Positions 12,323 to 28,061 of a stretch of 64,000 bases of DNA are shown here, piece by piece (within the stretch, counting starts at the first letter, position 1; every line of letters begins with the position of its first letter). Made by a program: the position numbers and the translations under genes. The stretch spans positions 32,001 through 96,000 of IMG/VR virus record IMGVR_UViG_3300005330_000014. One strand, given 5' to 3'. The notes under the pieces were generated by a model. That model made no database searches. It worked only from the letters and a program-made list of their open reading frames with translations, and had not been told where the DNA came from. Origin of the DNA: a virus (taxonomy: Duplodnaviria > Caudoviricetes).

Positions 12323-12670
12323 TTGCCAATGACTCCAGAACAACTTATTAAAGATTTAGAATCGCGCGGTTACAAACCCACCCGACAACGTAATAAAACA
12401 AACGCGGACAATACAACTTTATTAGAATATATTGAACTACCTTTCAATTCGGGCGGCTGCATTGATATTTATCCAATATTACCAGATGGATCGGGCGGAG
12501 AAGTAATAATTATCTACACAGAGAATTATAGAGATATAAAGAATCGCGTGGATAATGTATTTGAGTTATCTCTCAATGATAGTGACCCTAATTTTAATTT
12601 AGTCAATTGGATAGTAGAATTATTTGATAAAGGACTAGAGAATTTACCGAAATACGAAAAACCTTCCTAA
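12323..12670 (+). CDS. Hypothetical protein
   Basis: Last gene of plus cassette. Confidence 0.65.
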   Translation: MPMTPEQLIKDLESRGYKPTRQRNKTNADNTTLLEYIELPFNSGGCIDIYPILPDGSGGEVIIIYTENYRDIKNRVDNVFELSLNDSDPNFNLVNWIVELFDKGLENLPKYEKPS

Positions 12671-12947
12671 ACTAGAAGAACTAAGTAAGTATATAACTGG
12701 TGAAAATTTAACGAATTTATTAAATTAAATATTATATTTATTGAATTTATTGAATTACTCTGTAAAATTGCTTTTCGATTTTTATTTTAAGTTTAAAACA
12801 TGCACCCCGTGCGGGCAAAAAAATTTTTGGCACCCCCCGCATTTTCCAAAAACCGTAGGGCACCTATGTTACTAACTATCTTATTAGTTCTCATGTTATA
12901 GTTATCTATGCTATATGTTATCTAGTTAGTTAGTTATCTCTATGTTA

Positions 12948-13012
12948 GTACAAAACAAAAGCCGCGCAACCTAGCTAGTTAGCAGTTATGCTGTAGCATA
13001 GGCGCGCGGCTC
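12948..13012 (-). terminator. Long-hairpin terminator followed by TGTAC
   Basis: GCCGCGC...GCGCGGC stem, TTTTGTTTTGTAC. Confidence 0.65.
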
Positions 13013-13024
13013 TTAGTTAGTTAA

Positions 13025-13393
13025 TTACTCTCCGCTGATTACAGCTTGGCAACCGTCAGCGAACGCTTGCGCATATCGCGTGTCATGTTTGCGGTTATGC
13101 TCAATATAACGCTTGGCTTTATTCACCATTGCGTTGCGTTCATCCGCTAGCCTTGCTATCAGTAGTAATTCATCCCTCGCCGCTAGCGAACTTTTTTCTC
13201 CGTATTCGACCGCATGTATCAGCACGACGCTTTCCCATGTTGGCGTACAATCAATACTCCCCACTGGTGTCTTATTCTCCGCTTGTTGCGCTCTAAACGC
13301 GTCTACTTGCTCGCCCTTGCCTTGCCAGTGTTTGCGTTGGCGTTCGTTTCCCTTGTTGGATTGTTTGATTAGGTCAGTCTGCTTTTGTTTCAT
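13025..13393 (-). CDS. Hypothetical early protein
   Basis: ORF with AACT-repeat leader. Confidence 0.7.
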   Translation of the reverse strand: MKQKQTDLIKQSNKGNERQRKHWQGKGEQVDAFRAQQAENKTPVGSIDCTPTWESVVLIHAVEYGEKSSLAARDELLLIARLADERNAMVNKAKRYIEHNRKHDTRYAQAFADGCQAVISGE

Positions 13394-13411
13394 AGGTAAT
13401 AGGTTAGTTAG

Positions 13412-13561
13412 TTAGTTGTTAAGGAGTTGAATGATTGAGTTGATAGGTTGCGCGTGGGAATAGATGGCAAGCTTAAGCTCGCGACCAATGCCAGCGATGA
13501 AGAAAGCCGCGCGACTAGGGCGGCGAATGATGCACACGAGATGGAGGGCGATGTTTCGCAT
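13412..13561 (-). CDS. Small hypothetical protein
   Basis: ATG directly after stop of 13563-13835 (MRNIALHL..., 49 aa). Confidence 0.45.
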   Translation of the reverse strand: MRNIALHLVCIIRRPSRAAFFIAGIGRELKLAIYSHAQPINSIIQLLNN

Positions 13562-13562
13562 A

Positions 13563-13835
13563 CTAGCCTTTCTTCGCTTGCTGTGCGCACCGATACGCTG
13601 GCGTATGGTGGGGCCAAGCTTCATGTCCGCTAAGGGTAAGGCGGAAATGAGACAACGCATATACAGCCATAGGGCCACAAGCTGACAGTCCGCCTTGCGC
13701 GTTTATCCATCCTTCTGCATAGCCTATATAATACGCCATTTCTACGGGGGACAATTCCCCGTTAGCGTTGTATTTAGGTTGCTCAATTATCTCTGTCAGC
13801 TTTGCTAGCAGTACTTGATACGGTGTTTTTGGCAT
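13563..13835 (-). CDS. Hypothetical early protein
   Basis: ORF with AACT-repeat leader. Confidence 0.6.
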   Translation of the reverse strand: MPKTPYQVLLAKLTEIIEQPKYNANGELSPVEMAYYIGYAEGWINAQGGLSACGPMAVYALSHFRLTLSGHEAWPHHTPAYRCAQQAKKG

Positions 13836-13919
13836 ATGATTGAATTAGTTAGTTAGTTGATTAGTGAGGCTAGGCAAACGGATGGAACGTCACGCTTTAG
13901 CGGCTTTAGCCATTATGGG

Positions 13920-14474
13920 TTACACACACTCTTCAGGGTCAATCTCTGTTAGTCCCTCAGTGTCCACGCTAGGCGCATCGCCCGCACTGCTAGCGCCATT
14001 TCCGCCCTCCCCTGCTAGCTTGTTGAGATTTTGACCGTTGAGCCAATAAACGTTATTCACGTCCTTGGTTAGCATGCCGCTATCGCGCAAAGCGAGTACC
14101 TTGCCTATCTGCTCCTCACGCGTGAGGCCGTTGATACCAAGCGCAATTTCCTTTGCCGGGGTGAACGTCCTAAACGTCCCATAACGCGCGTTAAAGGCTG
14201 CTTCGTTCGCTCCCCGCGTAGGCTGCATTACTGGCGATGATGCGCGCGCTACGCTAGCCATGTCGCTCACTTGTCGCACGCTAGCCGCAATGCGTTGCGG
14301 ATTCACTCCCGCTGCAACAAGCCCATCATATATCTCCAGAGCGTGTTTCACGTCACCTGCCACTAGCATAATTGCAAAGCTAATTGGCGCGTTAATTGGC
14401 GTTTCACGCGGCTCGATAGTTTCCGCTTGCGCGGCTTTTGCCGCTTTCTTCTTTTGAGTCGTTTTCTTTTTCAT
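13920..14474 (-). CDS. Hypothetical early protein (basic N-terminus, acidic C-terminus)
   Basis: 184-aa ORF. Confidence 0.7.
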   Translation of the reverse strand: MKKKTTQKKKAAKAAQAETIEPRETPINAPISFAIMLVAGDVKHALEIYDGLVAAGVNPQRIAASVRQVSDMASVARASSPVMQPTRGANEAAFNARYGTFRTFTPAKEIALGINGLTREEQIGKVLALRDSGMLTKDVNNVYWLNGQNLNKLAGEGGNGASSAGDAPSVDTEGLTEIDPEECV

Positions 14475-14483
14475 CGAAATTGA

Positions 14484-14711
14484 TTAGTTAAGGGTTTCCA
14501 TTTGATTTGCCCATTTCCAGAAAACACTTTGTTTCGCCTTGTCGTTTGTGGCGTCAATTTCCTTGTCGCGGGTTATGTAACCCTGCCAGTAAGAAATTGT
14601 TGAATGAATTAGACGCGAACGAGAAACGGGAGAATCTGCCAATTGCAAAATAGCCGTTTGTGTGTCGCGGAATTGATCATCTAGCTTTGCTTTGATTTCC
14701 AAGGTAGTCAT
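14484..14711 (-). CDS. Hypothetical early protein
   Basis: Packed ORF. Confidence 0.65.
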   Translation of the reverse strand: MTTLEIKAKLDDQFRDTQTAILQLADSPVSRSRLIHSTISYWQGYITRDKEIDATNDKAKQSVFWKWANQMETLN

Positions 14712-14794
14712 ATACTTATACTCAGTTAATTAGTTAGTTAGTTAAATTGACGGGAAAGGGGACGGATGGAACGTCTAACCTTGCCCTTTGTTAA

Positions 14795-15772
14795 TTACTT
14801 GCGCGCGGCTTTCGCGGCTTTTTGCTTGGTCGCAATCATTTCCATATAATCCGCCCCCCCTTTGGCAAGCTGCCATCCTCCGCGCACAGGTTCTACCATT
14901 CCTTCGCTCGCGAGCCAGTTAACGCGGTCAAGCGTGCTCTTTTTCTTTTCGTCGCGTACTTTGAAGCGGAGAACATCTGCCGTAACGTGTTTCTCTTTTA
15001 CGATAGTGTTGAGGATCGTAATGTCTTCCCTCCGCAATCCCTTGGGGAAAAATCCCTTTGACCTAAGCAATTCCGTTACGTCGTCGCCTTTCAGTTTGCG
15101 AATGTCTTTCGCCTTCGCGCGATTGACGATAGGTCCAACTACTTCCTCCAAATCCCCCGGGAATGGCTTAACGCGGTCAAGTAACGCGTTCATGCCATCC
15201 TCCGTAAGCGCAACATCCTCACGGGCCAGAAATAGCTCGGCAATTTTCTCCATCTCGTTGCGCTTGTAAGCGCCAGTGATGAAGGAGCGACAACGGCGTT
15301 GCATCGCCTTATCGAGTGGCATGTTGCTGGCGAAAATATGAATATGATTTGTTGGGTCGAAATGGAAACAGTTTCCTTGCTTCCAAATCGTATGAGCCTC
15401 CGTTACTTGCGTCGTCAGTGCTTTAATCAAATCCAGTCCCTGCTTTTGCGCGTGGAATTCATCCCACAGAATTACGTAGGGGATTGCGCTCACTTGTTGC
15501 GTGTCAGGGTCAAACGACGCGATTTTATTCGCCATTTGATACAACTCCTTCATGCCAGCGTTTGGGGGCACTTCGTGATAATTGAATCCGAAATTGACCA
15601 ATTGCTCGGCCAACGCACGGGCGAGATTGCTTTTCCCCGTTCCTGTGTAGCCTCCCAAAAAGATTGGACGCCATTTGTACACCTCATTTTTCTTTGCGCT
15701 ATTGGCATGCGCCAAAAGCATTTCATTCAATTCCCCGACAATTTCAGTCTGTCCGATATACTTAGTAATCAT
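14795..15772 (-). CDS. ruvB: RuvB-like AAA+ ATPase with C-terminal winged helix
   Basis: YIGQ start, GYTGTGKS Walker A, WDEFH Walker B, QRR arginine finger, GL...D..IL and C-terminal wHTH; RuvB-like length. Confidence 0.7.
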   Translation of the reverse strand: MITKYIGQTEIVGELNEMLLAHANSAKKNEVYKWRPIFLGGYTGTGKSNLARALAEQLVNFGFNYHEVPPNAGMKELYQMANKIASFDPDTQQVSAIPYVILWDEFHAQKQGLDLIKALTTQVTEAHTIWKQGNCFHFDPTNHIHIFASNMPLDKAMQRRCRSFITGAYKRNEMEKIAELFLAREDVALTEDGMNALLDRVKPFPGDLEEVVGPIVNRAKAKDIRKLKGDDVTELLRSKGFFPKGLRREDITILNTIVKEKHVTADVLRFKVRDEKKKSTLDRVNWLASEGMVEPVRGGWQLAKGGADYMEMIATKQKAAKAARK

Positions 15773-15829
15773 AATCAGTTTTCTAGTTAGTTAGTTAATT
15801 TGTTTCCTCTGCATTTGCTTATCAGCTTT

Positions 15830-16140
15830 CCCGCCTTGGAACGGTTTAGAGTCTAGCGGATATGCCAGATTGTCTAAGGTGCATTAAACCGGCAAATCGC
15901 TTGTCTTGAATCGGCATCGTAATGGATGCCTAAACGACTAAGGTTTGCCAACGATGCCAGCGTGACTGTGAGGCTAATACTCGCCAGTCCTAACGTGCCC
16001 ATGCTGTCCAATCGTATCTAGTCGGCAATTCCCGCGTTTCGCAACGCGTTCTCTGCTCTGCATTCTCTCTCTTTATCCGCGCCGAGCACTGAGTTTGTGT
16101 CCTCTCGGCATCCCCATTTCCACACTGCATAGAGAGAATA
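15830..16140 (-). ncRNA. Candidate structured RNA / long leader of RuvB operon
   Basis: No ORF of 60 aa or more; several nested stems and a GCGA tetraloop. Confidence 0.45.
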
Positions 16141-16576
16141 ACCCGTACCCATATAAGGAGCAACATTTAAATACTTAATTTCAGTCAATTTTTAAAATAA
16201 TTCCGCGCGGCAATGTGATGATTGGCATAAAACTTGTTTTCGATTGTTTTGTTTAATCGAAAGTTTGGCACGCTTCTTTTCTATAATCTTTAGAAAATCT
16301 TTAAATAAGTCAAATAAGTCAATTTAATTAATTAGTTATTTACTTTAGCCAATCTAATCAACCCTGCCAAATAATCAATATCCCTAGATAATCAATACGT
16401 CTTAACTATTTAGTTTACTTAAGTTAATAGTTAACCTATCTGAAGTATCCGCCGCGTAGCCGCGCGGCCAAATTGCCGGGTGCCCCTTATTACGTTCCTC
16501 ATACGTTCAAACGGAGGGTCTGTTTTCGCCGCTAGGCATTATTAAGAGTTTAATTGTTTAAAACTGAGGGCCAGCC

Positions 16577-16618
16577 GTACAGCAAGAATGCCGCCCATAT
16601 TAAAGAGCGGCAATCTTG
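16577..16618 (-). terminator. Hairpin followed by TTCTTGCTGTAC
   Basis: TGCCGC...GCGGCA stem after gene 16645. Confidence 0.55.
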
Positions 16619-16644
16619 AAAAGTGAGATTTATTATTTAGTTAC

Positions 16645-17121
16645 TTAATACTCTTCGGGTTCGATGGGTTCATCCATGTCGCTTTCATCGTAACCACTCA
16701 AAACGCAAGGGCGATAACGGCTCATTTTCTCGGCGTGGCAAGACTTACAGGTGCGGCAAAGATAAATTCCGCGCGCATCGCTGTTTGAATGGGAGGGCAA
16801 ACCACTGCCACAATTGCAAAGGCGGGTGACAACGGAGAAAGCCATTACCTCGATACTTTCCCACTCTTGCGCGATTGCCTTTTCATAATTTGGCCGCGCG
16901 CATTCATTCAAGCTTTCCACGTCCACCTTGCCCATCGAATCGCAGGAGAAACTATACCCGCCGTTCTTGGTAGTGAAGTGCAACGAGAAAGTTGTCTCGA
17001 TGATTTCGTGATCATCACGTTCAATATGTTTAGTTAAACCGGCAGCCACTTCATGAGTGTCAAACCAGCGGGAGAAGGAGATGGATGGATATTTCATATA
17101 TTCCTTTTTTAATCCACTCAA
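16645..17121 (-). CDS. Hypothetical protein with C-terminal Zn-binding motif
   Basis: CNCGSG...DARGIYLCRTCKSC; start may be MKYPS (17097). Confidence 0.65.
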   Translation of the reverse strand: MSGLKKEYMKYPSISFSRWFDTHEVAAGLTKHIERDDHEIIETTFSLHFTTKNGGYSFSCDSMGKVDVESLNECARPNYEKAIAQEWESIEVMAFSVVTRLCNCGSGLPSHSNSDARGIYLCRTCKSCHAEKMSRYRPCVLSGYDESDMDEPIEPEEY

Positions 17122-17191
17122 TCAATTCGTGCAACAAAAATTTTTAAATTCTTTCTTAATTACTTATTTACTCTGGAAAATAGTCTAATCA

Positions 17192-17235
17192 GTACAAAAG
17201 GAAACCCCCACTGCCGCGCGGACAATGAGGGTTTC
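17192..17235 (-). terminator. Terminator followed by TGTAC
   Basis: GAAACCC/GGGTTTC stem, CTTTTGTAC. Confidence 0.65.
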
Positions 17236-17470
17236 AAGGTGCTTTGCCTTGCGGCCTATCTTTGAGTTTTAAGCCATCGGCATTTCAGGCGGGCTGTCCG
17301 TTAGGACTTTTATTTGTTTACTTAGTTATTTGTCAGAGACTATTTCCGCCTTCACTGCCCATTACATATCTGCTAGCTAGACAGACTCGGGGACTCGACC
17401 GACGGTTTATTTCAATTTGAGTTTTTCACTTTTCAACATCGCTCTTATTATTGAGCAGGTTATTTCTAAC
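17195..17470 (-). ncRNA. Candidate phage sRNA A (~275 nt)
   Basis: Own promoter and terminator; longest ORF seen 10 codons; multiple stems. Confidence 0.6.
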
Positions 17471-17476
17471 GAGTCC

Positions 17477-17505
17477 ATTTTACCATACCAATCCAAACGC
17501 GTCAA
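17477..17505 (-). promoter_or_regulatory. Sigma-70-type promoter
   Basis: TTGACG-N17-TAAAAT with extended TG. Confidence 0.85.
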
Positions 17506-17665
17506 CAAAAATTTTCAACTATTTTCAAAAATCTTTTTCCATCTTAATTATCCGCCCGAATTGATAGTTTGTTTTAATCTGTTTTAATCCGATTGTTTAG
17601 TTAATTAGTAATTAGGTTATTTGTTTTCTTCATTTAATTATTTAGTTGTTTAGTTATTTGAATCA

Positions 17666-17707
17666 GTACAAGAAAAAACCCGCCACCCTCTTTCGAGAGT
17701 GACGGGC
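17666..17707 (-). terminator. Terminator followed by TGTAC
   Basis: CCCGTCACTCTC-GAAA-GAGGGTGGCGGG, TTTTTTCTTGTAC. Confidence 0.8.
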
Positions 17708-17721
17708 TTCCGTAGGCGATA

Positions 17722-18132
17722 TTACTTCGCGGGCGTCAAAACAGCCTTTGCCGTCTTCACGTTTTTCTTTGCGACGGGCTTCGCGGCCTTTGCCTTCGAC
17801 TCCGCCGCCTTCTTTGGCTTGTTCGTGCTGCCGACGGGACGACCCGACTTCGCGGCTGCCATCTTGATGCCGCTCTCGATAGGGTACGGGATTTTCGCGT
17901 TGCCCTTGGAAGGCTCCTCGGTGAGAAACACGCGAACGAATTCCTTGCCACCCTTGTGCGTTTCATGCCGCGCGGACACGGTTGCATCCATTTGCTTCGC
18001 TCCCGTGTGAGCCATCGCGTAAATATTCGCGATTTTCTGACCGTTCACGGGAACGACGAACGATTGACCCTTCCGCATAAGGCGGAGCGTGGCGGAGATG
18101 CTGAACTTGTTTTTATTGGAGTTGTTTTTCAT
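17722..18132 (-). CDS. Basic DNA-binding protein with AT-hook-like motif and histone-H1-like tail
   Basis: SGRPVGS, Lys/Ala/Pro-rich tail. Confidence 0.6.
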   Translation of the reverse strand: MKNNSNKNKFSISATLRLMRKGQSFVVPVNGQKIANIYAMAHTGAKQMDATVSARHETHKGGKEFVRVFLTEEPSKGNAKIPYPIESGIKMAAAKSGRPVGSTNKPKKAAESKAKAAKPVAKKNVKTAKAVLTPAK

Positions 18133-18216
18133 ACTGTTATTTAGTTTTTTAGTTTAGTTGTTTGTTTCGAGTTTTTCTAGTCTTTCAAGCTAAGGGATTG
18201 AACCTTTTCTGTCACT

Positions 18217-18244
18217 ACTTTAGCACATATTGAGATTCTGTCAA
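18217..18244 (-). promoter_or_regulatory. Sigma-70-type promoter
   Basis: TTGACA-N16-TAAAGT with extended TG. Confidence 0.8.
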
Positions 18245-18297
18245 CAATTATTTTAGGAAATTTTTTGGTTATGTAATTTTCTCTGTATTTGAATTGT

Positions 18298-18522
18298 TTA
18301 AATTGTTTGTTTACTTACTTTCCAAACGGGTGCCCGCAAACAATTCTGTTTCCGAAATTTCCGCAATTCTTTCCGCTTGGCTTTCAGTCCCGCCGCAATC
18401 TTTTCATTCAAAATTCCCGTGCATGTTCCCGCTTTCAAATCTTTATAATGTTTTTGTGCAATATCCGCCGCCACAGTTCCCATGATCAAATCGTTTACCG
18501 TTGGAAGATTCTTTTTGTTCAT
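18298..18522 (-). CDS. Hypothetical protein
   Basis: Co-oriented ORF. Confidence 0.6.
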   Translation of the reverse strand: MNKKNLPTVNDLIMGTVAADIAQKHYKDLKAGTCTGILNEKIAAGLKAKRKELRKFRKQNCLRAPVWKVSKQTI

Positions 18523-18558
18523 ATTTTTAGTTTTTTTAGTGTTTGGTTTAGTTAATTA

Positions 18559-18810
18559 TTAGTTTTTAATTAAGCTGTGCCACGTTCCCTTGCCACGTCC
18601 CCGGATTTTTACCTCCAGTATTTCGGCGGGCTCAAAATTCCTCTCAATCCTCCGCATGATTTCATAAAGGTGAAAAGAATGATCCGCGCGAATCCAGAGA
18701 ATGTGCCCGCGTCCCTCGCCATCAGTAACGCGGAAAGAATAATCCCGGCATTTGTTGGCGGAACTACCGAAAACGAAAGGCAAACCTTGGGGAATAAAAG
18801 TAGTGATCAT
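18559..18810 (-). CDS. Hypothetical protein
   Basis: Co-oriented ORF. Confidence 0.6.
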   Translation of the reverse strand: MITTFIPQGLPFVFGSSANKCRDYSFRVTDGEGRGHILWIRADHSFHLYEIMRRIERNFEPAEILEVKIRGRGKGTWHSLIKN

Positions 18811-18862
18811 ATTATTTATGTATTTATGTTGATTGTTTATTTAGTTTAAGTTAGTTAATTGT

Positions 18863-19069
18863 TTAGTCTTGAAAATCGCCGTAGGGGAAACCCATATCCA
18901 TTTCTTCATCGCTGCCACGTTCCAAACATCCAGAGCAGATTGAGAAACGCGAGCCTCGGGGCACTTTCGCCCCACAAGTGCATTTCATATTGAGTTGTTC
19001 TCCAGTTTCCGCATCGAAATCGGGGCAGCAACCGGATTCATGACCGCAGCAAGGGAAATCTTCGCACAT
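18863..19069 (-). CDS. Small Cys-rich phage protein (CEDFPCCGH type)
   Basis: MCEDFPCCGH..GCC...CTCG...CSGC. Confidence 0.7.
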   Translation of the reverse strand: MCEDFPCCGHESGCCPDFDAETGEQLNMKCTCGAKVPRGSRFSICSGCLERGSDEEMDMGFPYGDFQD

Positions 19070-19112
19070 AATTTTGTTTATTTTTAAGGTTAAAGGTTAA
19101 TCTGACACAGCC

Positions 19113-19141
19113 AATTTATCAGCTATTCAATCATCCGTCAA
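19113..19141 (-). promoter_or_regulatory. Sigma-70-type promoter
   Basis: TTGACG-N17-TAAATT with extended TG. Confidence 0.75.
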
Positions 19142-19174
19142 TAGAAAAATTTAGAATTTTTTTAGCTTAGATTT

Positions 19175-19222
19175 GTACAGCAAAAAAGCCGCGCGCCTTA
19201 ACCCTGACGGGTGGACACGCGG
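19175..19222 (-). terminator. Terminator followed by TGTAC
   Basis: GCCGCG...CGCGGC, TTTTTTGCTGTAC. Confidence 0.75.
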
Positions 19223-19432
19223 CCTTTGTATTTATTTATTTAATTAAATTTTACATTCCTTGTTTCCGCGCCCATTTCTCGAATGCCTTATCGATACTCA
19301 ACTCCGCCACCTTTTCTTTTCGGTCCATCCGTTCATTTTGATTCGGGCGCGTATATTCGAGTTTTGTATTTTTGCGGGAGGTATGTTTTTTCATGAGTTA
19401 TTTTAGTTAGTAGTTATTTGTTTGTGGGAGAG

Positions 19433-19516
19433 TGGTGGCCCGCCTCGGACTCGAACCGAGAAACCTTTCGGTCAGGGATTTTAAGTCCCCCGTGTTTGCC
19501 ATTTCACCAGCGGGCC
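19433..19516 (-). tRNA. trnL: tRNA-Leu (TAA), CCA encoded
   Basis: GGCCCGC/GCGGGCC, GGGGA-CTTAAAA-TCCCT, long V-arm, A73-CCA. Confidence 0.95.
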
Positions 19517-19791
19517 AAAGTGTTTATTTAGTTAATTAAATATATGATTCTGCCCGCTGCTCCCACGCCTGCTGCTCCCACATATCATTTGCGGCTGCCA
19601 TCGTAATTGCAAGGGCTCGATCAGCTTTGCTCATGCGTCGGATTTGTTCATGCGTAAATCCCGCGCGGCTCAATTGTTTAAGTATGTAGATATTCATTAG
19701 TTTTTAGTTATAATTGATTAAACCGTTTTGAAAATCACAACGATTCCGATTGCAAGGAAGATTACAAATGGGTCCATGAGTTATTTATTAG

Positions 19792-20067
19792 TTAGTCAAT
19801 GAAAACGTGTGCATAATCCCCGTTAGGTAGTGATCCCGTAACAAAGTTCTTATTCCAAGAATTGCCCGCTTGTGGATTGCCAAATTTCTCAACATCTTCC
19901 GCCGCAAATTTTTCGCATAACTTTTGTGCCCCGTAAATATGTGCGGCATCGTGCCCGTCTACCTCCACCGGAATTGAAAGGGTAATTGAGCCGCGCGTAC
20001 AAAACGCTTTAATACGTGTTGGCTTTGTGTTTGTCCAAGGCAGGATTTTTGTTTGGATAGCTTGCAT
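19792..20067 (-). CDS. Conserved-type phage hypothetical protein
   Basis: MQAIQTK...TNTKPTRIKA N-terminus. Confidence 0.7.
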   Translation of the reverse strand: MQAIQTKILPWTNTKPTRIKAFCTRGSITLSIPVEVDGHDAAHIYGAQKLCEKFAAEDVEKFGNPQAGNSWNKNFVTGSLPNGDYAHVFID

Positions 20068-20104
20068 ATTAGTATTTAGTTAAGTAGTTAAGTTAGTTAA
20101 TTGA

Positions 20105-20341
20105 TTACTTTGATTCTTCCGTACTCCATTCAATATGATTGTTATGTTCAGTTTCGATATTGCTGATATATCCGTACTCATACAATCCGCGTTTCACGGG
20201 AATTTTGAAGTCATTTGGGCGGGTTTTCCACGTTTTCACTTTCCCGTTAACGCGGACGCGCCCGGCCAAATTGTTAATGTGATAAAGGTATTGACCGTGC
20301 TTAAGAGTGAGGGCGATTTCTTTTGTAATGTGTGGCTTCAT
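20105..20341 (-). CDS. Conserved-type phage hypothetical protein
   Basis: RVNGKVKTWKTRP..F.IPVK.GLYEY. Confidence 0.7.
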   Translation of the reverse strand: MKPHITKEIALTLKHGQYLYHINNLAGRVRVNGKVKTWKTRPNDFKIPVKRGLYEYGYISNIETEHNNHIEWSTEESK

Positions 20342-21386
20342 ATTTCCAATTTAAATCAGATTTTGTGCCGTAACAAGGATTATTTCTAAAAATGTTTTTA
20401 CAGAGAAAAATGCGGTTTTTGAATGGTTTTAAAGTCTTTTGAATCCGCGCGGCCAAGTTCTGTTTACTTTCAGGCGGATTTTTTAAGTTTTTCGCGGCTT
20501 TTATTAGTACTTTTACCAAAACTGATTACTTTTTTCTGATTTTTTAGTATAGTATTTAACCCAACAAGCGCCAACGTAACCAAGATACTATCCCAGAATA
20601 TCCAGAGGATTAAAGAAATCATATAGTTATATTAAGAATTATTAAGAGTTATATTAAAGTTAATTAGTTATTACCTTTAATCGCGGGGATTCTCGAATTT
20701 TGTTCACACCGATGATACGCGCGCATACATGCAGAACGAAAAACATCATTAGGTGCCCGCTTTGCCAAATCCAAATATTTTGCCGCGAGAATTTTCTGCT
20801 CGTTGCGGAATATATTAAATCCGCCCGGCTAATCTTGTCAATAGGATTTTTCAAGAAAAAGATTTAGGAAAAATTATTCATTTTTATTGTTTAAATCGCG
20901 CGGCTTTACGTTTTAAATGTGTAAATATAATAGTTAAAGTTAATTATTTAAGTAGTATTGTTATTAGTATTGGATTCGCTCCGTCGCCCTAACGCTAATT
21001 AACCCTAAACGAAAAAGTAGATAACCTAAACAAAGATATATTAAACTGTTAGTATAAGCCAGCTTTTAAAAGCAATTACGACTTATATTAAATTTTTTTT
21101 GTTTATTAAGTAGCTACACTTAGACAAAATGAACATGCCAAAATAATAATAATACAGAAAACTACAAACCAAAATGTTTCTTCATTATTCATATAATTGT
21201 TGAATTATCAGAGTAAAATAGTTAATTGGAAAATTATTAAATAGTATCCGTAAGGATGATTATTAAGAAAAGGAATAAAATAAGAAGGGGAAGACTATAA
21301 TTTTTATTACAAATTTTGTTTAAATCTTAGTTAATTAGCTTGTTTTTCTATTATCTTTTTTATTATCTATATCTATCCTAGTTATT

Positions 21387-21617
21387 CTAGTTTATTTCTA
21401 ATTTAATATGCATTGTATCCGCCATACTTTGATCAAACCTATTTCTTCTCATAAAGACTTTTAATGTTTGAACTTTAAAGGCATCATCTGGGATTGTAAG
21501 ATCACTAAATGGTTTGTCCGCCGAGATTGTTTCTGCTCCTACTGTAAAAACTATTTTAGTGGCCCCGCATTCTGATTGCGCGCGTTTCAGTAATTTAATA
21601 AGTTTATTGATTTCCAT
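21387..21617 (-). CDS. Hypothetical protein
   Basis: Co-oriented ORF. Confidence 0.6.
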   Translation of the reverse strand: MEINKLIKLLKRAQSECGATKIVFTVGAETISADKPFSDLTIPDDAFKVQTLKVFMRRNRFDQSMADTMHIKLEIN

Positions 21618-21822
21618 ATTCTTTATTTTTATTTATTTCTTCTTATTCTTCTTAATTACTTTTGTTATTTCTCTCTTTACCTTAATATCACAAACCACTT
21701 TCTTATTATTACTTACCTCGATTAATTCCTTATTAATCCATTTATAAGTAAACTTAGGGAATATTCTTTTTAACTCGTCCACCAGAGTAATTTGAGCGCG
21801 CGGCTTCATATTATTTTAGTTT

Positions 21823-22026
21823 TTACTCTGGTTTATTAATTAGTTTTTTAATTCCATATTCTATCCCATCATAACATCCTACGATAACTTTTTCCATTAA
21901 TTCTCCAGTTATATTATTCCAGTAAACTGAGCCGCCCGTAGTTTCGCCCACAAATTCCCATTCTTCTTTCTCTAATAGTTTATCGCCTTCTTCTTTAGAA
22001 ATAATTTGTTCTTCAGAGTAATTCAT
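21823..22026 (-). CDS. Hypothetical protein
   Basis: Co-oriented ORF. Confidence 0.6.
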   Translation of the reverse strand: MNYSEEQIISKEEGDKLLEKEEWEFVGETTGGSVYWNNITGELMEKVIVGCYDGIEYGIKKLINKPE

Positions 22027-22055
22027 AAAATTTATTGTTTTTCCTTAGTTATTTC

Positions 22056-22286
22056 TTACTTATTTAAATCTTTAAATCCTTCAAGGGCGAAACCAAATCC
22101 AAGTATTGAAATTCCAAAACCATAATAGTTATCTTTTATATCTGTAGCCGCGCGAATTACAGTGTCCAACTTAATATAATTGTCCGCGCGGCTTATTAAG
22201 AATGAAGGATAAAGTAATTGGAATTTTATTTTGATATTGCGGGGACTTCTGAGGTAGAAAGTCTTATGACCAGTTGAATGAATCAT
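22056..22286 (-). CDS. Hypothetical protein
   Basis: Co-oriented ORF. Confidence 0.55.
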   Translation of the reverse strand: MIHSTGHKTFYLRSPRNIKIKFQLLYPSFLISRADNYIKLDTVIRAATDIKDNYYGFGISILGFGFALEGFKDLNK

Positions 22287-22529
22287 ATCATTTTTTCTCT
22301 GTAATATACCATTTACTTAGTTTGTTTAATTCTCTAATTGATTTGATTGCCTTTTTATATCTTTTAACTTTAAGATTAAAAATCCAATTATTCCAAATTG
22401 TTATGAATATGTCAATCATATTGTATTGTTTATTAGTTAAAACACCATCTATCTAAAATATCATTTTGATACTCGCCACGAATCCAACCGCCCAAATTAT
22501 CAGAGTAATTAGTATGTCTAGTCTCATGA

Positions 22530-22763
22530 TTATTTTTTTAAACTATCCCAAATACGCGCGGCCTCTTCATGATTTTCAGCAACCATATCAGCATAGAAAT
22601 CTACGTCGCAATTTTCTAAGCAATAATAAGTTAATTGTTTCCCGTTGTATTGCGGTTTATAAATCACTTTCTCAATCCTAGACTGAATAATTGATTGATC
22701 CCAAATACCAAAAACTACATCGCCAACTTGGAATCGGGCGCGTTGAAGTACTGTCATTTTCAT
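22530..22763 (-). CDS. Hypothetical protein
   Basis: Co-oriented ORF. Confidence 0.6.
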   Translation of the reverse strand: MKMTVLQRARFQVGDVVFGIWDQSIIQSRIEKVIYKPQYNGKQLTYYCLENCDVDFYADMVAENHEEAARIWDSLKK

Positions 22764-22893
22764 AATTTTTATTGATTTTTTTGTTTAGTTATTTTCTTCT
22801 GCCGTTAGGCTATCTCTGTAATCCGCCGCCGCGTGGCTTTATATATGTCCACCAATTCTCTTATTGTTTAGTTATTTGGAGTTTGTAATGAGG

Positions 22894-23202
22894 TTAATCA
22901 ATGTGCTGATTAATTATTGCTGCGATGTCGCCCAAGGATGCCCTGACTGAATTAGGTCCATGTCCATGCTCGCAAATTATAAAACTGTCTTGCAGATGTT
23001 GAGCGAGCGTGGCCACGTTTGGTCTTTCACTTTCTTCTTTAACTTTATCTTCCAAGTCTTTATTATACTTGTTTATTGAATTTACAATTTCATTATGAAT
23101 TGGTAATGTAACTCTATAGAAAATCGATGGAATCGCAAACCATATTAGCCGCGCGATTAATCCTAGTATCTTCAATAACAATTGAAATTGAGTATTATTC
23201 AT
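22894..23202 (-). CDS. Hypothetical protein
   Basis: Co-oriented ORF. Confidence 0.6.
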   Translation of the reverse strand: MNNTQFQLLLKILGLIARLIWFAIPSIFYRVTLPIHNEIVNSINKYNKDLEDKVKEESERPNVATLAQHLQDSFIICEHGHGPNSVRASLGDIAAIINQHID

Positions 23203-23237
23203 AATAGTTTTTAATTAGCTAGTTTTTAAATATTTTA

Positions 23238-23576
23238 TTATCGTTCGTCAATCATATGGGCTGAATATGTAGCTTTTGCAGTAAAGCCGCGCGGCGGCAA
23301 TTGTACCCGCTTACCTTTACAACAATGACTTTCGCAGAAGTAACCCGTTTTCTTTGCGCGGCTCAAATCTTTTTTATCCACAAAGTTTCGTATGTATACT
23401 TGTTTAGTTTTTAAATTAATTTGAATGCGAGCCATTTCTCCACAACTCCCATATTCAACAATCGCAAAATGAGTAAATCCTGATTGTTTCCAGTCAGGAG
23501 ATACAATCTCACATATTAGCAATACTTTTAAATTGTCGCCACCGATTCCGCGCGGATTACTAAGTTTGATATTCAT
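23238..23576 (-). CDS. Hypothetical protein
   Basis: Co-oriented ORF. Confidence 0.65.
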   Translation of the reverse strand: MNIKLSNPRGIGGDNLKVLLICEIVSPDWKQSGFTHFAIVEYGSCGEMARIQINLKTKQVYIRNFVDKKDLSRAKKTGYFCESHCCKGKRVQLPPRGFTAKATYSAHMIDER

Positions 23577-23610
23577 ATCATTATATAAGTAGTATAATAT
23601 AGTTTGTTAG

Positions 23611-23805
23611 TCAGTCAGTTAATTTATGGATATCAGGGATTTTAGAATGCAGTTTTAAGTACGAGTTGTGACTATTAACGCGGAATTCAATCATTGAATC
23701 GTCAGTAAAGTAAATACCTACCCAATCGCCGTCTAGCCCAACTTGGGCAGTATCCGCACGGACTTCTTTAATTGTTTTACCTTTAAGCTGATCAAATAAA
23801 TGCAT
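23611..23805 (-). CDS. Hypothetical protein
   Basis: Co-oriented ORF. Confidence 0.6.
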   Translation of the reverse strand: MHLFDQLKGKTIKEVRADTAQVGLDGDWVGIYFTDDSMIEFRVNSHNSYLKLHSKIPDIHKLTD

Positions 23806-23822
23806 ATGATTAGTTAGTTTAA

Positions 23823-24614
23823 TTACTTAGCCAAATACAGCCATTGGCACCCGGGGGACTTCAATTGTTTCAATACTTTAACTGCACATTCAGCAATTTT
23901 ACTTAGTAGTTTATCAGTAATTTTGAAACAGTCGGGAATATTTTCAATTAGTTCGGTAGGGTAAGGATATTTATTAATCAAGTTATGCTGTAGCTGATCA
24001 AATTCATCATTATAACCACCCAAATCACGCAAATAATTATTCAGTTTAACTACTTGTTTGGATTTGATTTTAGGAGATTTCATCGATTTCAATCCAAGCA
24101 GTGTTTTAACTTGTTTTAATAATCTTTGATACTCGCTAAATTCATCATTTTCCATTCTATCCCAGCCCTTATTTTTCTTTTTCAATTCTTTATCAACTAC
24201 TTCTTTAATTTTTGGCAGCAAAATTTCTGTAAATAGCAGTTTAGATAGTAATTCATTAAAATCATCTCCATCAAGCATATCACTGCCCAATTGCGCGATT
24301 GCCACCCGTTTCAAGCCTTGGGCGCGGGCCTGTTTAGATGACCATTTCAAATCATTTAATTGTATTTTAAAATCCCTAACGTCTGGATGCACGCAATCAG
24401 GTTTATCATTATGAGGCAAACCCATTGCGTAATTAACGGCGGCTTCAACGCACATTTGACCCTTGCGCGGGCGACCTAATCCACAGGACAAACCAAAAGA
24501 TAATACTTTAACTACTCGTTGAGCAGTATCTTTAGTGGGCGTTTCCACTTCTTCACTCGGGCGCAAGTCAGAGAATTTAACGTTAGTGTGAGTCTTGGTA
24601 TTGGATGTTTTCAT
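23823..24614 (-). CDS. Conserved phage hypothetical protein
   Basis: GLG.P..G.MCVEAAV.YA.GLPH.D.P.CV...LND..WSS..ARA.GL.R.AIAQLGS block recalled from other phages. Confidence 0.75.
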   Translation of the reverse strand: MKTSNTKTHTNVKFSDLRPSEEVETPTKDTAQRVVKVLSFGLSCGLGRPRKGQMCVEAAVNYAMGLPHNDKPDCVHPDVRDFKIQLNDLKWSSKQARAQGLKRVAIAQLGSDMLDGDDFNELLSKLLFTEILLPKIKEVVDKELKKKNKGWDRMENDEFSEYQRLLKQVKTLLGLKSMKSPKIKSKQVVKLNNYLRDLGGYNDEFDQLQHNLINKYPYPTELIENIPDCFKITDKLLSKIAECAVKVLKQLKSPGCQWLYLAK

Positions 24615-24854
24615 TGATTTGTTTGTTTTTATTTATTGCGGTTAATTAGTTAGGTTTAGTTAATTAATTCTTTTCACTTCAACTTCAATATCCCAAACGG
24701 GCGCGAGTTCGTTAAGGATATAAGCATAACCAATTCGTCGGAGGCGCGCGGGCTTAGATTCGCGCGGATTCGTGATGATGAAAAACCAAATTAGGAAAAG
24801 AATTTCACCGAATAGATAGAATAGAATGAATGAGAGCATAGTTAAGTTAGTGAA

Positions 24855-25127
24855 TTAGTTAATATTTGTAGTAATATATCCCCAAACATCCGTTTTGGGT
24901 GAGTGTCCATCGCCCGATTTCAAATAGCACAAATCCAAATATTTGTTTGGCGTGCCATTTCGCTGATTAAATACTTGAATGGTTGCTAATTGTTTGCCTA
25001 TTGAGTCTAACCAAGCTTTTTCATTTAGTTTTTTAACTTCAAAGGCCGCGCGGGCCTCTTCCATCGAAACAAACATAACGCTGGCGGGATATTTTTCAGG
25101 GTAAACGATTGCTTTATCTTTATCCAT
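24855..25127 (-). CDS. Hypothetical protein
   Basis: Co-oriented ORF. Confidence 0.6.
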   Translation of the reverse strand: MDKDKAIVYPEKYPASVMFVSMEEARAAFEVKKLNEKAWLDSIGKQLATIQVFNQRNGTPNKYLDLCYLKSGDGHSPKTDVWGYITTNIN

Positions 25128-25154
25128 AAAACAAAATTAGTTATTTATTGAATC

Positions 25155-25397
25155 TTATTGAATCAACCATTTGAAAGCTGCTTCGTCGCCCGGCTGCGCG
25201 GACAATTTCAGAGAATGAGATTCTCCAAAACACTTAATTACTGATTTATAACCCGGAGTTATTTCGATAAATCCCGCACTAATGGGCGTCCAACCTTGGA
25301 ATTTCCGCGCGAAGTCCGCGTGTTCAATCCACTTGGGGAAAATGAAACCGTCAAAGCCCGTTGTTCCTTCAAATATGATATATTTACCTGATTGCAT
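25155..25397 (-). CDS. Hypothetical protein
   Basis: H.DFA...PISAGF...C.GES.SL.L motif. Confidence 0.65.
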   Translation of the reverse strand: MQSGKYIIFEGTTGFDGFIFPKWIEHADFARKFQGWTPISAGFIEITPGYKSVIKCFGESHSLKLSAQPGDEAAFKWLIQ

Positions 25398-25419
25398 GAT
25401 TTTTAATGATTTAATTTAT

Positions 25420-25608
25420 TTAGCGTTCAGCGTCAACAAGCTCCCCATATTCCCTTGCCAACAAGACAAGAGTTTCTCCCATCTTTTTATGATCGTACGC
25501 CCGAAATGCGGCAGTATATTTCATAGCTGGAAATTTAATTGTTATTTCCGTGGGGTTTTTGGAGTCGATTAGTATTTCAGCTTTGAGAGTAATGATAGAG
25601 CGAGCCAT
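25420..25608 (-). CDS. Hypothetical protein
   Basis: Co-oriented ORF. Confidence 0.6.
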   Translation of the reverse strand: MARSIITLKAEILIDSKNPTEITIKFPAMKYTAAFRAYDHKKMGETLVLLAREYGELVDAER

Positions 25609-25644
25609 AGAATTTAGTTAATTAAAGTTATTTGAATTGTTTAG

Positions 25645-26055
25645 TTATTCAGCACGATCATTAATTTTAATTGGATTACTAAAGAATCGACTGTCACCCG
25701 TCCAAACGAAATTACCGCCGAACATCGTCCATTTACCAGAGACAATCAAAGAAACAGGAATCGCGCGGAGTCGAATGCCGTAGCACATATCTTGTACAAT
25801 AATGAAATCGTCATTAAATCCTTGTTTAGCTAAATCATTAGCTAGATTCCTAGCCTCTATTTGAGAGTAACCAAGAGCTTCGCAGCCGCGCGTGTTCAAG
25901 CTAAGTGAATCCGGGGCGGAAGTCCGTTCAGCTTTATAATGACAATCAACCGTTTTAGAGCGTTTAGATACTCCATTTTTGCTACCATCACCATAATCAG
26001 AGCGATAGATATCAGCGGGCAGGCAAGGAGTTTTAGAAGAGAAACGAATTTTCAT
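25645..26055 (-). CDS. Conserved-type phage hypothetical protein (likely leaderless)
   Basis: MFGGNFVWTGDSRF...IND R motif; ATG 6 nt after -10 box. Confidence 0.7.
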   Translation of the reverse strand: MKIRFSSKTPCLPADIYRSDYGDGSKNGVSKRSKTVDCHYKAERTSAPDSLSLNTRGCEALGYSQIEARNLANDLAKQGFNDDFIIVQDMCYGIRLRAIPVSLIVSGKWTMFGGNFVWTGDSRFFSNPIKINDRAE

Positions 26056-26061
26056 ACCTTT

Positions 26062-26090
26062 ATCTTAAATTGTTTGGCGGAATCAGTCAA
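26062..26090 (-). promoter_or_regulatory. Sigma-70-type promoter
   Basis: TTGACT-N17-TAAGAT. Confidence 0.7.
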
Positions 26091-26124
26091 GGATTAATTT
26101 TCTTTAAATTCGTCTTTGATTTTC

Positions 26125-26487
26125 TTAATAATTTGAATCTTGTCCGTTAGTTTTCTTAATTTGTTTAGTTACTTTCTTGGCTTTAGCCGCCGTTTTAATG
26201 ACACTTTCGCGCGGCTCAAATTCATAAGTTACTTTATCAATAGTTATTTGTTTAATACCGTCAACAGAGATATTCCGATAGTCTTGAACTGAAGTATCAA
26301 AAACAGTAATTAACTTATAATCTTTTGGTTTATAAGGTTGTTGCCCGCCTTGTAAATGAGCAGTGACATGACGCCTGCATACCATCTTTCTTTCTTCCCC
26401 CGTGCTGCGTTTGATAAATACAACTGAAAAGATACGATTGCCCGCCGCATCAATTGCCGCTTTGATATTTTCGTAATTTGGTTTCAT
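26125..26487 (-). CDS. SH3-barrel WYL_2/DUF2693-like protein
   Basis: FSVVFIKRSTGEERKMVC...LITVFD....YRNI pattern. Confidence 0.55.
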   Translation of the reverse strand: MKPNYENIKAAIDAAGNRIFSVVFIKRSTGEERKMVCRRHVTAHLQGGQQPYKPKDYKLITVFDTSVQDYRNISVDGIKQITIDKVTYEFEPRESVIKTAAKAKKVTKQIKKTNGQDSNY

Positions 26488-26535
26488 AACTTACTTATTA
26501 TTTTAATTATTTTAATTGTTTAGTTAGTTAATTAG

Positions 26536-26621
26536 TGAGAAGCGGGACTACCACCCCGTTTATTGCTCTTGGGCTTTCAGGCTGATTTCTCGAAGTTCTA
26601 GCCTTTTCATCCCGCTTCTCA
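26536..26621 (-). ncRNA. Three-way-junction RNA in 5' leader of WYL_2-like gene
   Basis: 12-bp closing stem TGAGAAGCGGGA/TCCCGCTTCTCA with two inner stems. Confidence 0.55.
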
Positions 26622-26624
26622 AAT

Positions 26625-26942
26625 CTAGTCTAGACTATCGGGCGCGTTAGTCAAGCACTTTTTATTTCGGCAAATATATCTATTTTTCTTTTTGTTAAAG
26701 TTACCTTCACGGTGACAGTCGGGGCATTCATCTTCAAACAAAGCAATTTTAATAGAAGTACCTGAAATATTCCGCAATGCTTCCATAAATTGACTCCGGT
26801 AAATCGCGCGGCTTTCAATGTCCATGAAGGGGAAATGCGTTTCAATTTCCACACCAGTAGCTTCCAATCCAACGCTTCTGTCCCCATCATTTGCTTCAAT
26901 AAATAGTTTAAATGAAGTGTTGGAACGTTTATTTGTTTTCAT
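26625..26942 (-). CDS. Hypothetical Zn-binding protein
   Basis: CPDC...CRNKKC. Confidence 0.65.
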   Translation of the reverse strand: MKTNKRSNTSFKLFIEANDGDRSVGLEATGVEIETHFPFMDIESRAIYRSQFMEALRNISGTSIKIALFEDECPDCHREGNFNKKKNRYICRNKKCLTNAPDSLD

Positions 26943-26953
26943 TTGTGTGTTAT

Positions 26954-27205
26954 TTAGTTCTTAAAATAGTTATTCATATAAGTCTTAAGATGATCGTCAT
27001 TGCAAGTTCGATATACTTCATCCATTAGTTTTTTGTTCGGCCACAATTTATTTTGAGCCGCGCATTTTGGACTCGTTAAAGCAAGGTGAAGAATCCTCCA
27101 ACGGACGCTCGGGGGAATCACTTTGATTTTATGAGGATTGCAGAGCGCAACCGCTTTATCCATCGCCTTATCTAACTTCTCTTTTAATTGTCCTTGAATT
27201 TTCAT
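26954..27205 (-). CDS. Hypothetical protein
   Basis: YRTCNDDHL motif. Confidence 0.65.
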   Translation of the reverse strand: MKIQGQLKEKLDKAMDKAVALCNPHKIKVIPPSVRWRILHLALTSPKCAAQNKLWPNKKLMDEVYRTCNDDHLKTYMNNYFKN

Positions 27206-27226
27206 AATATTTAAAGAATTAATTAG

Positions 27227-27544
27227 TTAAACTATTTCACTTTCCAATTTGATTAACTTTTTAAGCAATTCTCCGCCGATGCATGAGTAAAGAGAGTGAC
27301 TGTCTTCTTCGCGTTGCTGACTGATTGCCCAAGCTTTATTTTCGGGGATATTATAAGTATATTCACAATCTTTTAAATGATGAACATTAGCCGTGCCAAC
27401 AAATTGTTCTTCATCCAACCTTTCTTGCTCGGCGCTTTCAACCGTCATTGTCATTGCGTCCAATGTTTCCTTGGGGAAGTAGCCACGCGCGGCTGCCCAT
27501 TGGAGAGTTTCCATTTCGGCATTTGAAAGAGTGATTTGATACAT
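27227..27544 (-). CDS. Hypothetical protein
   Basis: Co-oriented ORF. Confidence 0.65.
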   Translation of the reverse strand: MYQITLSNAEMETLQWAAARGYFPKETLDAMTMTVESAEQERLDEEQFVGTANVHHLKDCEYTYNIPENKAWAISQQREEDSHSLYSCIGGELLKKLIKLESEIV

Positions 27545-27569
27545 TGTATTATTTAGTTAATTATTTAGA

Positions 27570-27749
27570 TTAAGCAGAAAGTGTCATTTCATCAGAATTA
27601 AGATATTTAATATATTCACGTTCTGTATAAATAGAAGCTAGTTTTTGTTCATGATGTTTTAACCGCGCAGCCAAACGTTTTGCGTCGCGAGTATTTTTTA
27701 CCGTGAAAATTTCGGGGCGGGTATGCGCGGAGTAGGCAATAACTTTCAT
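27570..27749 (-). CDS. Small hypothetical protein (likely leaderless)
   Basis: Manual 59-aa ORF MKVIAYSAHTRPE...; ATG 6 nt after -10 box. Confidence 0.55.
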   Translation of the reverse strand: MKVIAYSAHTRPEIFTVKNTRDAKRLAARLKHHEQKLASIYTEREYIKYLNSDEMTLSA

Positions 27750-27755
27750 ACCTTA

Positions 27756-27784
27756 AATTTAATCCCTTTTGTTTAATCCGTCAA
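27756..27784 (-). promoter_or_regulatory. Sigma-70-type promoter
   Basis: TTGACG-N17-TAAATT. Confidence 0.7.
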
Positions 27785-27821
27785 GAGAAATCTTGTGGAT
27801 TTTACCTTGTATATTTGACCA

Positions 27822-28055: not shown

Positions 28056-28061
28056 AAATCC

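Follow-up and report, generated by a model that had tools for sequence, protein, structure and literature searches.

What is known of orphan non-coding RNAs (ncRNAs) in lytic phages comes largely from a small number of cultured phages of Pseudomonas and E. coli, and a function has been assigned to almost none of these RNAs. PA5oct, a Pseudomonas jumbo phage that depends on the host RNA polymerase, produces two such RNAs, ncRNA1 and ncRNA2 (236 and 451 nt), which are ORF-less and highly transcribed, are located near the genome end with early genes, have neither sequence similarity nor a known function, and were reported without recognised promoters (PMC7318152). ORF-less small transcripts have also been proposed as ncRNA candidates in phiKZ, PAK_P3, LUZ19 and other phages by ONT-cappable-seq; most of these are processed from 5' or 3' untranslated regions (UTRs) and have no start site of their own (PMC10914365). 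In addition, phages carry RNA anti-CRISPRs and guide mimics (bioRxiv 10.64898/2026.06.03.729762).

The locus described here, unit A, differs from the UTR-derived phage ncRNAs in having its own strong promoter and terminator. Its nearest analogues are ncRNA1 and ncRNA2 of PA5oct; a blastn search of unit A against GenBank phages found nothing that relates it to them, and it is distinguished from both by an explicit promoter and terminator and by evidence from environmental RNA instead of a timed infection. Base-pairing phage sRNAs, such as DicF and VpdS of phage VP882, possess their own promoter and an intrinsic terminator with a U tail. Unit A is similar to these sRNAs in its signals and size class, but no seed or target was identified for it.

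The phage genome and the unit A locus

The window, i.e. the whole stretch of 64,000 nucleotides that was analysed, corresponds to bases 32001-96000 of an IMG/VR virus record of 208,233 bp, which is estimated to be 95% complete. Every public run containing the unit A stretch is a rhizosphere metagenome, and the phage is an uncultivated 208-kb rhizosphere jumbo phage. Its G+C content is approximately 35% and is higher in the 12-20 kb segment of the window. ARAGORN identified six tRNA genes across the window, none of which is in unit A. The matches of the DnaE-like polymerase in GenBank phages all share <30% identity, and a tblastn search with the 506-aa neighbour returned no match, indicating that the phage has no close cultured relatives. 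A related-locus search of IMG/VR that used the two flanking proteins, the polymerase and the RuvB-like protein as queries returned no usable relatives.

Unit A is contained in the gap of 624 nt that separates two genes on the minus strand, one encoding a 136-aa protein (17722-18132; upstream) and the other a 150-aa protein (16645-17097; downstream). The neighbours of unit A, including the 136-aa protein, belong to no Pfam or PHROG family. The 136-aa protein contains an SGRP (AT-hook-like) motif, and its C-terminal tail is rich in Lys and Ala, like that of histone H1-type bacterial DNA-binding proteins. Within the gap, a perfect tandem direct repeat, two copies of GATTAAAACA (17570-17589, minus strand), is located 65-85 nt upstream of the -35 element of promoter A; it is a possible binding site for a regulator.

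Promoter and terminator of unit A

The first-pass annotation had described a promoter and a terminator approximately 275 nt apart. All elements were found at these coordinates, but on the minus strand. The near-consensus extended -10 sigma-70-type promoter (17477-17505, minus strand) consists of TTGACG (17505-17500), a 17-nt spacer and TGgTAAAAT, with TG at 17485-17484 and TAAAAT at 17482-17477, and matched 10 of 12 positions plus TG in a consensus scan. Upstream of the -35 element, there is a UP-like AT-rich element (17506-17545, minus strand), which holds the 15-mer TTTTTGAAAATAGTT (17531-17517). The predicted primary transcript (17196-17470, minus strand) is non-coding and approximately 275 nt long, with a start placed 7 nt after the -10 hexamer (around G17470). 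The intrinsic terminator (17192-17235, minus strand) comprises a 15-pair hairpin (17235-17201; -23.0 kcal/mol for the hairpin alone) followed by CUUUUGUAC, with a short U tract at 17199-17196 and GUAC at 17195-17192. A Bacteroidota-type promoter reading of an upstream TTTTTG was also considered and was rejected because the RNA contigs described below begin at 17459 and 17455, which fits a sigma-70-type start near 17470.

Strong promoter-like sites, defined as those that match at least 10 of the 12 positions and also have TG, were found five times in the 18-kb early region (12.5-30.5 kb), every one on the minus strand, against 0.63 +/- 0.86 expected from composition-preserving shuffles (approximately 8-fold over expectation). 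Weak promoter-like matches were not enriched in the region (59 versus 47.5 +/- 8.7 expected). Three of the five strong sites head ORF-less cassettes, namely A, B (27822-28090) and C (28424-28760). In 10 TTGAC-type promoter-like sites (e.g. at 28760, 26090, 20841, 54406 and 86538, minus strand), the spacer contains a GC-rich block consisting of TCCGCC, CCGCGCGG, ATCCGCCGGG or its complement, which is absent from promoters A and B; the palindrome CCGCGCGG is present in 57 copies in this genome of 35% G+C. A short U-rich run and then (U)GUAC(UG) come after the terminator hairpins in the early region, at 17192, 17666, 27822, 28420 and other positions (minus strand), and this tail is common to the terminators of A, B, C and the 136-aa gene.

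Detection of unit A RNA in rhizosphere metatranscriptomes

The first-pass annotation had anticipated an abundant RNA, and a discrete, relatively abundant transcript bounded by the promoter and the terminator was recovered as whole contigs from two metatranscriptome runs. These rhizosphere runs (X4 and X6, probably from one sampling campaign) were identified with a word index as containing part of the stretch, and their pieces were placed on positions 12500-29500. The region 17239-17459 is covered by a 220-nt contig in X4 (17240-17459, depth 30.1) and by a 217-nt contig in X6 (17239-17455, depth 6.2), both of which are whole contigs with 0 mismatches and no loose ends. The contigs carry neither strand, exact ends nor timing, and their depth is a single figure per contig. 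Both begin 11-15 nt past the predicted start and end at the foot of the terminator hairpin; the 3'-terminal 40 nt are absent, possibly because the hairpin was poorly primed and not because the RNA was processed.

Unit A showed the highest RNA depth in the 17 kb, at 30.1 versus 3.8-6.8 for the three other phage pieces of X4, which are located inside the 136-aa gene (17750-18061, depth 6.8), inside the gene at 22530-22763 (depth 3.8) and inside cassette C (28492-28683, depth 4.9). In X6, the unit A contig was the only true phage piece across the 17 kb. Neither run contained an RNA contig on cassette B, the 150-aa gene or the spacer 17460-17750, which was not counted as silence. DNA runs from the same habitat covered 26-27 of 30 bins at even low depth, whereas the two RNA runs covered 7 and 2 of 30; DNA carry-over therefore cannot explain the RNA signal. 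In situ, unit A RNA thus exists as a discrete molecule of comparatively high abundance, the strand and exact ends of which are predicted. With its own promoter, its own terminator, a discrete RNA and no plausible ORF (see the next section), unit A is an sRNA gene by the operational definition.

Coding potential

As the first-pass annotation had indicated, no ORF of appreciable length is present: the longest complete ORF in unit A has 10 codons (MLKSEKLKLK). The start context derived from 267 ORFs of the phage combines A-rich leaders that are poor in G and show no Shine-Dalgarno signal with T at -1 and A at +4. The 25 nt upstream of the phage genes are 40-57% A and approximately 9% G, and often include AACUAACUAACUAA, which provides stops in all three frames. 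When scored with the matrix built from these ORFs, all five AUGs of unit A fell below every real start (percentile 0), and the ATGs of the two flanking genes were placed at percentiles 39 and 96. A six-frame comparison of unit A with all ORFs of the phage yielded self-matches only, and two plus-strand TTG ORFs at unit A belong to no Pfam family. From these sequence comparisons, a translated micro-ORF in unit A appears unlikely.

Unit A could still act as a micro-ORF messenger or minigene, being translated into MLKSEKLKLK, MGSEGGNSL or MPMA or trapping ribosomes or tRNA in the manner of the lambda bar minigenes. We consider this highly improbable. Short ORFs are present, and those of cassettes B (MKYT) and C (MKIRSPP) have moderately gene-like start contexts, at percentiles 25-30 of the real starts. 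In unit A, however, every AUG ranks below all 267 real starts, the AUG of the 10-codon ORF abuts the arm of a stable hairpin, and the mini-ORFs of A, B and C cannot be aligned and are conserved neither in length nor in sequence. Another 10-codon ORF, MKKTNNLITN (17630-17660, minus strand), is located in the spacer that separates promoter A from the upstream terminator; its start context is at percentile 67 of the real starts, which indicates that leader-like sequences with an ATG occur also in apparently untranscribed spacers.

Predicted secondary structure

Unit A is predicted to fold into a string of separate hairpins and one long-range clamp. The 5' hairpin UGCUC/GAGCG (17440-17457, minus strand; P 0.91) has the loop AAUAAUAA, and the 10-codon ORF begins directly after it. 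It is followed by the hairpin GUCUG/CAGAU (17368-17386, minus strand; P 0.89), the 9-nt loop of which contains the palindrome CUAGCUAG; this palindrome is not significant by itself. The clamp domain, GGCA-GUGA-AGGCGG / CCGCCU-GAAA-UGCC (17279-17359, minus strand), is formed by pairing of 17359-17346 with 17292-17279. Its stem with a tandem-GA loop, which had been proposed in the first-pass annotation, was present in both the minimum free energy (MFE) and centroid folds with pair probabilities of 0.94-0.99 (0.94 for GGCA/UGCC and 0.99 for AGGCGG/CCGCCU), and the internal loop is predicted to comprise tandem sheared-type GA/GA plus one G.A mismatch. The clamp encloses a 24-nt A-rich strand (17331-17308), predicted to be approximately 90% unpaired, and the hairpin GUCC-UAAC-GGAC (17307-17296; P 0.99), also in line with the earlier proposal. 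Two 3' hairpins follow (17235-17275, minus strand; GGCUUA/UAGGCC, P 0.90, and CAAGG/CCUUG, P 0.79). The sequence GCC-GCAA-GGC, annotated previously as a GNRA hairpin, is present at 17255-17246, but it overlaps these two hairpins and is out-competed by them in the ensemble. The terminator hairpin has a probability of 0.91 in the ensemble of unit A.

The folding energy of the body without the terminator was not better than that of shuffles (z -1.2), and a z of -2.96 was obtained with the terminator included. The two DNA runs X2 and X3 contained an identical sequence with zero variants, and no homologues were found (see below); the helices of unit A are accordingly thermodynamic predictions.

Cassettes B and C

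Cassette B (27822-28090, minus strand) is composed of the UP-like 15-mer, TTGAC and TGGTAAAATGGA, followed by approximately 235 nt without an ORF of more than 10 complete codons. It contains three copies of AACCAUU, a GUC-GAAA-GAC hairpin, the 4-codon ORF MKYT and a terminator plus UGUUUGUACUG. Cassette C (28424-28760, minus strand) begins with TTGACA-16-TGcTAGACT and continues for approximately 300 nt, including four AACUAA motifs, the 7-codon ORF MKIRSPP and a terminator hairpin of -32.5 kcal/mol located approximately 40 nt before an 88-aa gene (28120-28386). It also contains GCUCACCGCCUUA, which resembles the 3' tail of 16S rRNA, being identical to it at 11 of 13 positions.

Several elements are shared by A and B. 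Within the 208-kb genome, exact copies of the 15-mer upstream of the -35 element and of the 12-mer TGGTAAAATGGA, which spans the -10 hexamer and the start, were found only in these two cassettes, and the blocks GCAGU-N1-2-AGGCGG and CCCGCCU-N5-GCCGA are likewise common only to them. They also share the terminator tail TTTGTACTG, one-mismatch copies of which are present at two other terminators of the region. The similarity of A and B outside the promoter is marginal: the score of their local alignment was reached by 13 of 300 shuffles (p ~0.04), and nhmmer gave E values of 0.4-0.8. The B-C alignment covers approximately 130 nt, and its score was reached by none of 300 shuffles; no significant alignment was obtained between A and C, and the mini-ORFs of B and C could not be aligned with each other. 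The equivalent of the clamp stem is not favoured in the ensemble of B, RNAalifold on A and B gave no consensus structure from a poor MAFFT alignment, and the energies of A-B, A-C and B-C intermolecular duplexes were not better than those of shuffles. A, B and C are built alike and are treated here as one class of cassette of uncertain common descent, in which the kinship of B and C to A is weak.

Searches for relatives and comparison with known RNA classes

The homologue search suggested by the first-pass annotation yielded none in Rfam, GenBank phages, IMG/VR, JGI metagenomes or GTDB genomes. Rfam 15 at the gathering threshold detected only four tRNAs, all elsewhere in the window. When E values up to 10 were allowed for 16900-17800, the best scores were 11-18 bits against thresholds of 37-100 (E 0.3-10) and corresponded to terminators or chance. 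A distant blastn search of 17100-17720 against 50,697 GenBank phages gave no match. The promoter pattern gave 52 hits in IMG/VR, all in unrelated phages and all either extended -10 promoters of a generic kind or coding stretches. The A-B core pattern gave 0 hits in IMG/VR, 15 in JGI metagenomes and 6 in GTDB genomes, all being chance matches in GC-rich coding sequence. No antisense target was found in the phage genome, where the only complementarity of unit A was to leader motifs, on the non-transcribed plus strand, and to the abundant CCGCGCGG palindrome.

The first-pass annotation had listed a protein sponge and an RNA polymerase decoy as possible functions; the signatures of the known sponges and of 6S RNA are absent. 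6S RNA is, like unit A, an abundant non-coding RNA of approximately 200 nt, but it forms a long rod with a central bubble that mimics an open promoter, whereas the MFE, centroid and ensemble folds of unit A consist of separate hairpins plus one clamp; no 6S-like rod and no match to RF00013 at E up to 10 were found. The CsrB/RsmZ and CrcZ sponges share with unit A a multi-hairpin architecture, single-stranded motifs, strong expression and an intrinsic terminator. However, the motifs typical of sponges are depleted or at expectation in unit A, and there is no Rfam match to them. CsrA sponges of the CsrB/RsmZ type have many GGA/ANGGA motifs, mostly in the loops of hairpins; unit A contains 2 GGA (5.2 expected) and 1 ANGGA (1.7 expected). 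CrcZ-type Hfq/Crc sponges and class II Hfq sRNAs have several AAnAAnAA or (ARN)n tracts; unit A contains a single AAnAAnAA, located in the loop of the 5' hairpin, and four ARN3, neither above shuffles (p 0.17-0.29). A Y RNA, recognised by a terminal stem with the Ro-binding handle, was also rejected; the mini Y-like hairpins next to the Ro60-like gene of the phage share AGAUGCAUCCAGCAA...CUGCAUCUAG, and nothing similar is present in 17195-17470. No tRNA-like or tmRNA element was detected in unit A by ARAGORN or Rfam. A 64-aa basic protein (genome 192482-192676, plus strand; window ~160482) was considered as an Sm/Hfq-like partner and was not substantiated. It has a sub-threshold match to DUF2642 (E 0.01) and a low-confidence model with one helix plus three strands (pLDDT 66); it had no sequence match in PDB, and Foldseek returned no significant fold and no Sm/Hfq match. 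Judged by its sequence, unit A is an orphan phage-encoded non-coding RNA outside every described family.

An RNA anti-defence decoy, mimicking a host CRISPR repeat or guide, an antitoxin RNA or a part of a tRNA, was also considered. A strong host-type promoter in an early-looking region is a typical anti-defence position, and, as noted above, there are precedents in phages for RNA anti-CRISPRs and guide mimics (bioRxiv 10.64898/2026.06.03.729762). In unit A, however, there are no tandem or CRISPR-like repeats (a tandem repeat of approximately 30-36 nt being the sign of a type III antitoxin or CRISPR repeat), no tRNA-like element and no Rfam match to a CRISPR, tracrRNA or antitoxin RNA. Nothing specific points to such a decoy, and we regard it as very improbable, only slightly less so than the minigene discussed above.

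Relationship to the downstream gene

The 150-aa gene downstream of unit A appears to possess a promoter of its own. A degenerate copy of promoter A, AAAATTTTTG-TTGCAC-17-TAAAAA (17098-17150, minus strand), ends 8 nt before the ATG (17097), and its 17-nt spacer resembles that of promoter A; this copy is too weak for the consensus scan and was read directly from the sequence. In several other early genes (e.g. 25645-26055 and 33086-33496), only 6-9 nt separate a sigma-70-like promoter from the ATG, suggesting leaderless or near-leaderless mRNAs, and the gene following cassette B (27570-27749) is built likewise, with a promoter close before its ATG. The 150-aa protein is Cys-rich and acidic. Only two homologues (54 and 36% identity) were found among 5.8 billion proteins. 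These homologues (P0002 and P0003) are encoded on short GC-rich contigs without synteny, and what precedes them is either a different gene or just a terminator, with no RNA of this kind. On sequence evidence, this distribution suggests that the 150-aa gene was acquired horizontally into the GC-richer 12-20 kb segment.

Unit A might alternatively belong to the mRNA of the 150-aa gene as its 5' portion, i.e. as a cis-acting leader or attenuator whose terminator serves as a regulated, riboswitch-like switch. The two are on the same strand, the terminator is just approximately 100 nt ahead of the ATG, the intervening promoter copy is weak (TTGCAC / TAAAAA), and cassette C seems to need read-through into its 88-aa gene, as the 40 nt between the two contain no promoter. 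On the other hand, the promoter module duplicated 8 nt before the ATG follows the arrangement of the other leaderless-type early genes, the homologues of the 150-aa gene are without the leader, no riboswitch family was matched, and the ensemble offers no obvious anti-terminator alternative to the terminator (P 0.91). The RNA contigs end at the terminator in both runs and none is on the downstream gene, which is a weak argument. A leader is thus rather improbable. The promoter copy of the 150-aa gene suggests that unit A is a stand-alone unit rather than a leader, and an independent unit is favoured by this copy together with the leader-less homologues and the contigs ending at the terminator. 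From the independence of the downstream promoter, it is inferred that the RNA acts in trans.

It is also conceivable, although unlikely, that unit A is a functionless expressed remnant, namely an early cassette that has decayed by losing its ORF while keeping its promoter and terminator. The region is made up, mosaic-like, of cassettes that each carry one gene, with orphan genes among them, the neighbours have no Pfam or PHROG family, the downstream gene looks horizontally acquired, and leader-like A-rich segments and mini-ORFs are scattered through unit A. The lack of conservation in the searches and a body that folds no better than shuffles are also as expected of a remnant. A remnant is less readily reconciled with a promoter that ranks among the best five of the 18-kb region and has retained a 15-nt upstream element identical to that of B, with the highest RNA depth in the region, or with the retention of three such cassettes in one compact phage genome. 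Moreover, there is no trace of a former frame and no similarity to any phage protein.

Proposed role of unit A RNA

On balance, unit A is probably a stand-alone gene for a trans-acting phage ncRNA of approximately 230-275 nt. The host RNA polymerase would transcribe it as soon as infection starts, along with the adjacent one-gene cassettes of the GC-richer 'host-takeover-like' region; this early timing is suggested by a promoter of host type and by the location of unit A among many cassettes. The transcript would end at its own terminator, and the next gene would use its own weak, leaderless-type promoter copy.

Within the stand-alone reading, we tentatively propose a trans-acting role in which the RNA would bind protein as a decoy or scaffold. 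Base pairing with host mRNAs is the main variant and seems less probable. Unit A RNA is U-poor, and the predicted chain of short GC-rich hairpins would fit a protein-binding scaffold or decoy better than a seed-pairing sRNA. The stable GC-rich hairpins and the long-range clamp stem would hold out A-rich, G-poor single strands, which resemble the Shine-Dalgarno-less, AACUAA-type mRNA leaders and spacers of the phage. Ribosomal protein S1 is a possible reader of such leaders. The exposed strands might accordingly titrate or recruit an initiation factor, a ribosomal component (e.g. S1) or another single-strand RNA binder, and titration or recruitment of a leader reader such as S1 would be the preferred concrete mechanism. 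The AACUAA motif occurs once in A, twice in B and four times in C; the idea of a leader mimic is weakened because A has a single copy and because AACUAA is also what the spacers of this genome contain by default, so that the apparent mimicry may simply be default intergenic composition.

A broader view, which we consider distinctly improbable, is that A, B and C form a phage-private family of decoy RNAs, made early, by which translation or RNA surveillance is reprogrammed, or that they are RNA anti-defence decoys of a new type. In such a family, the clamp-held A-rich strands would imitate AACUAA leaders and the shared C(C/A)CCGCCU block, represented in C by GCUCACCGCCUUA, would imitate the anti-Shine-Dalgarno tail, capturing S1, 30S subunits or a host factor that otherwise acts on phage mRNAs.

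For unit A, a sequence-only ncRNA prediction in an uncultivated soil jumbo phage is now backed by environmental RNA. Units of this kind can be called from their promoter-terminator anatomy, and public metatranscriptomes can be used to check them. The genes of this phage have no Shine-Dalgarno sequence and often appear to be leaderless, which is a poorly explored mode of phage gene expression. Should unit A RNA, with cassettes B and C, turn out to act as a decoy, whether for a defence system or for the translation apparatus, an RNA-based tool would be added to the means by which phages take over their hosts.
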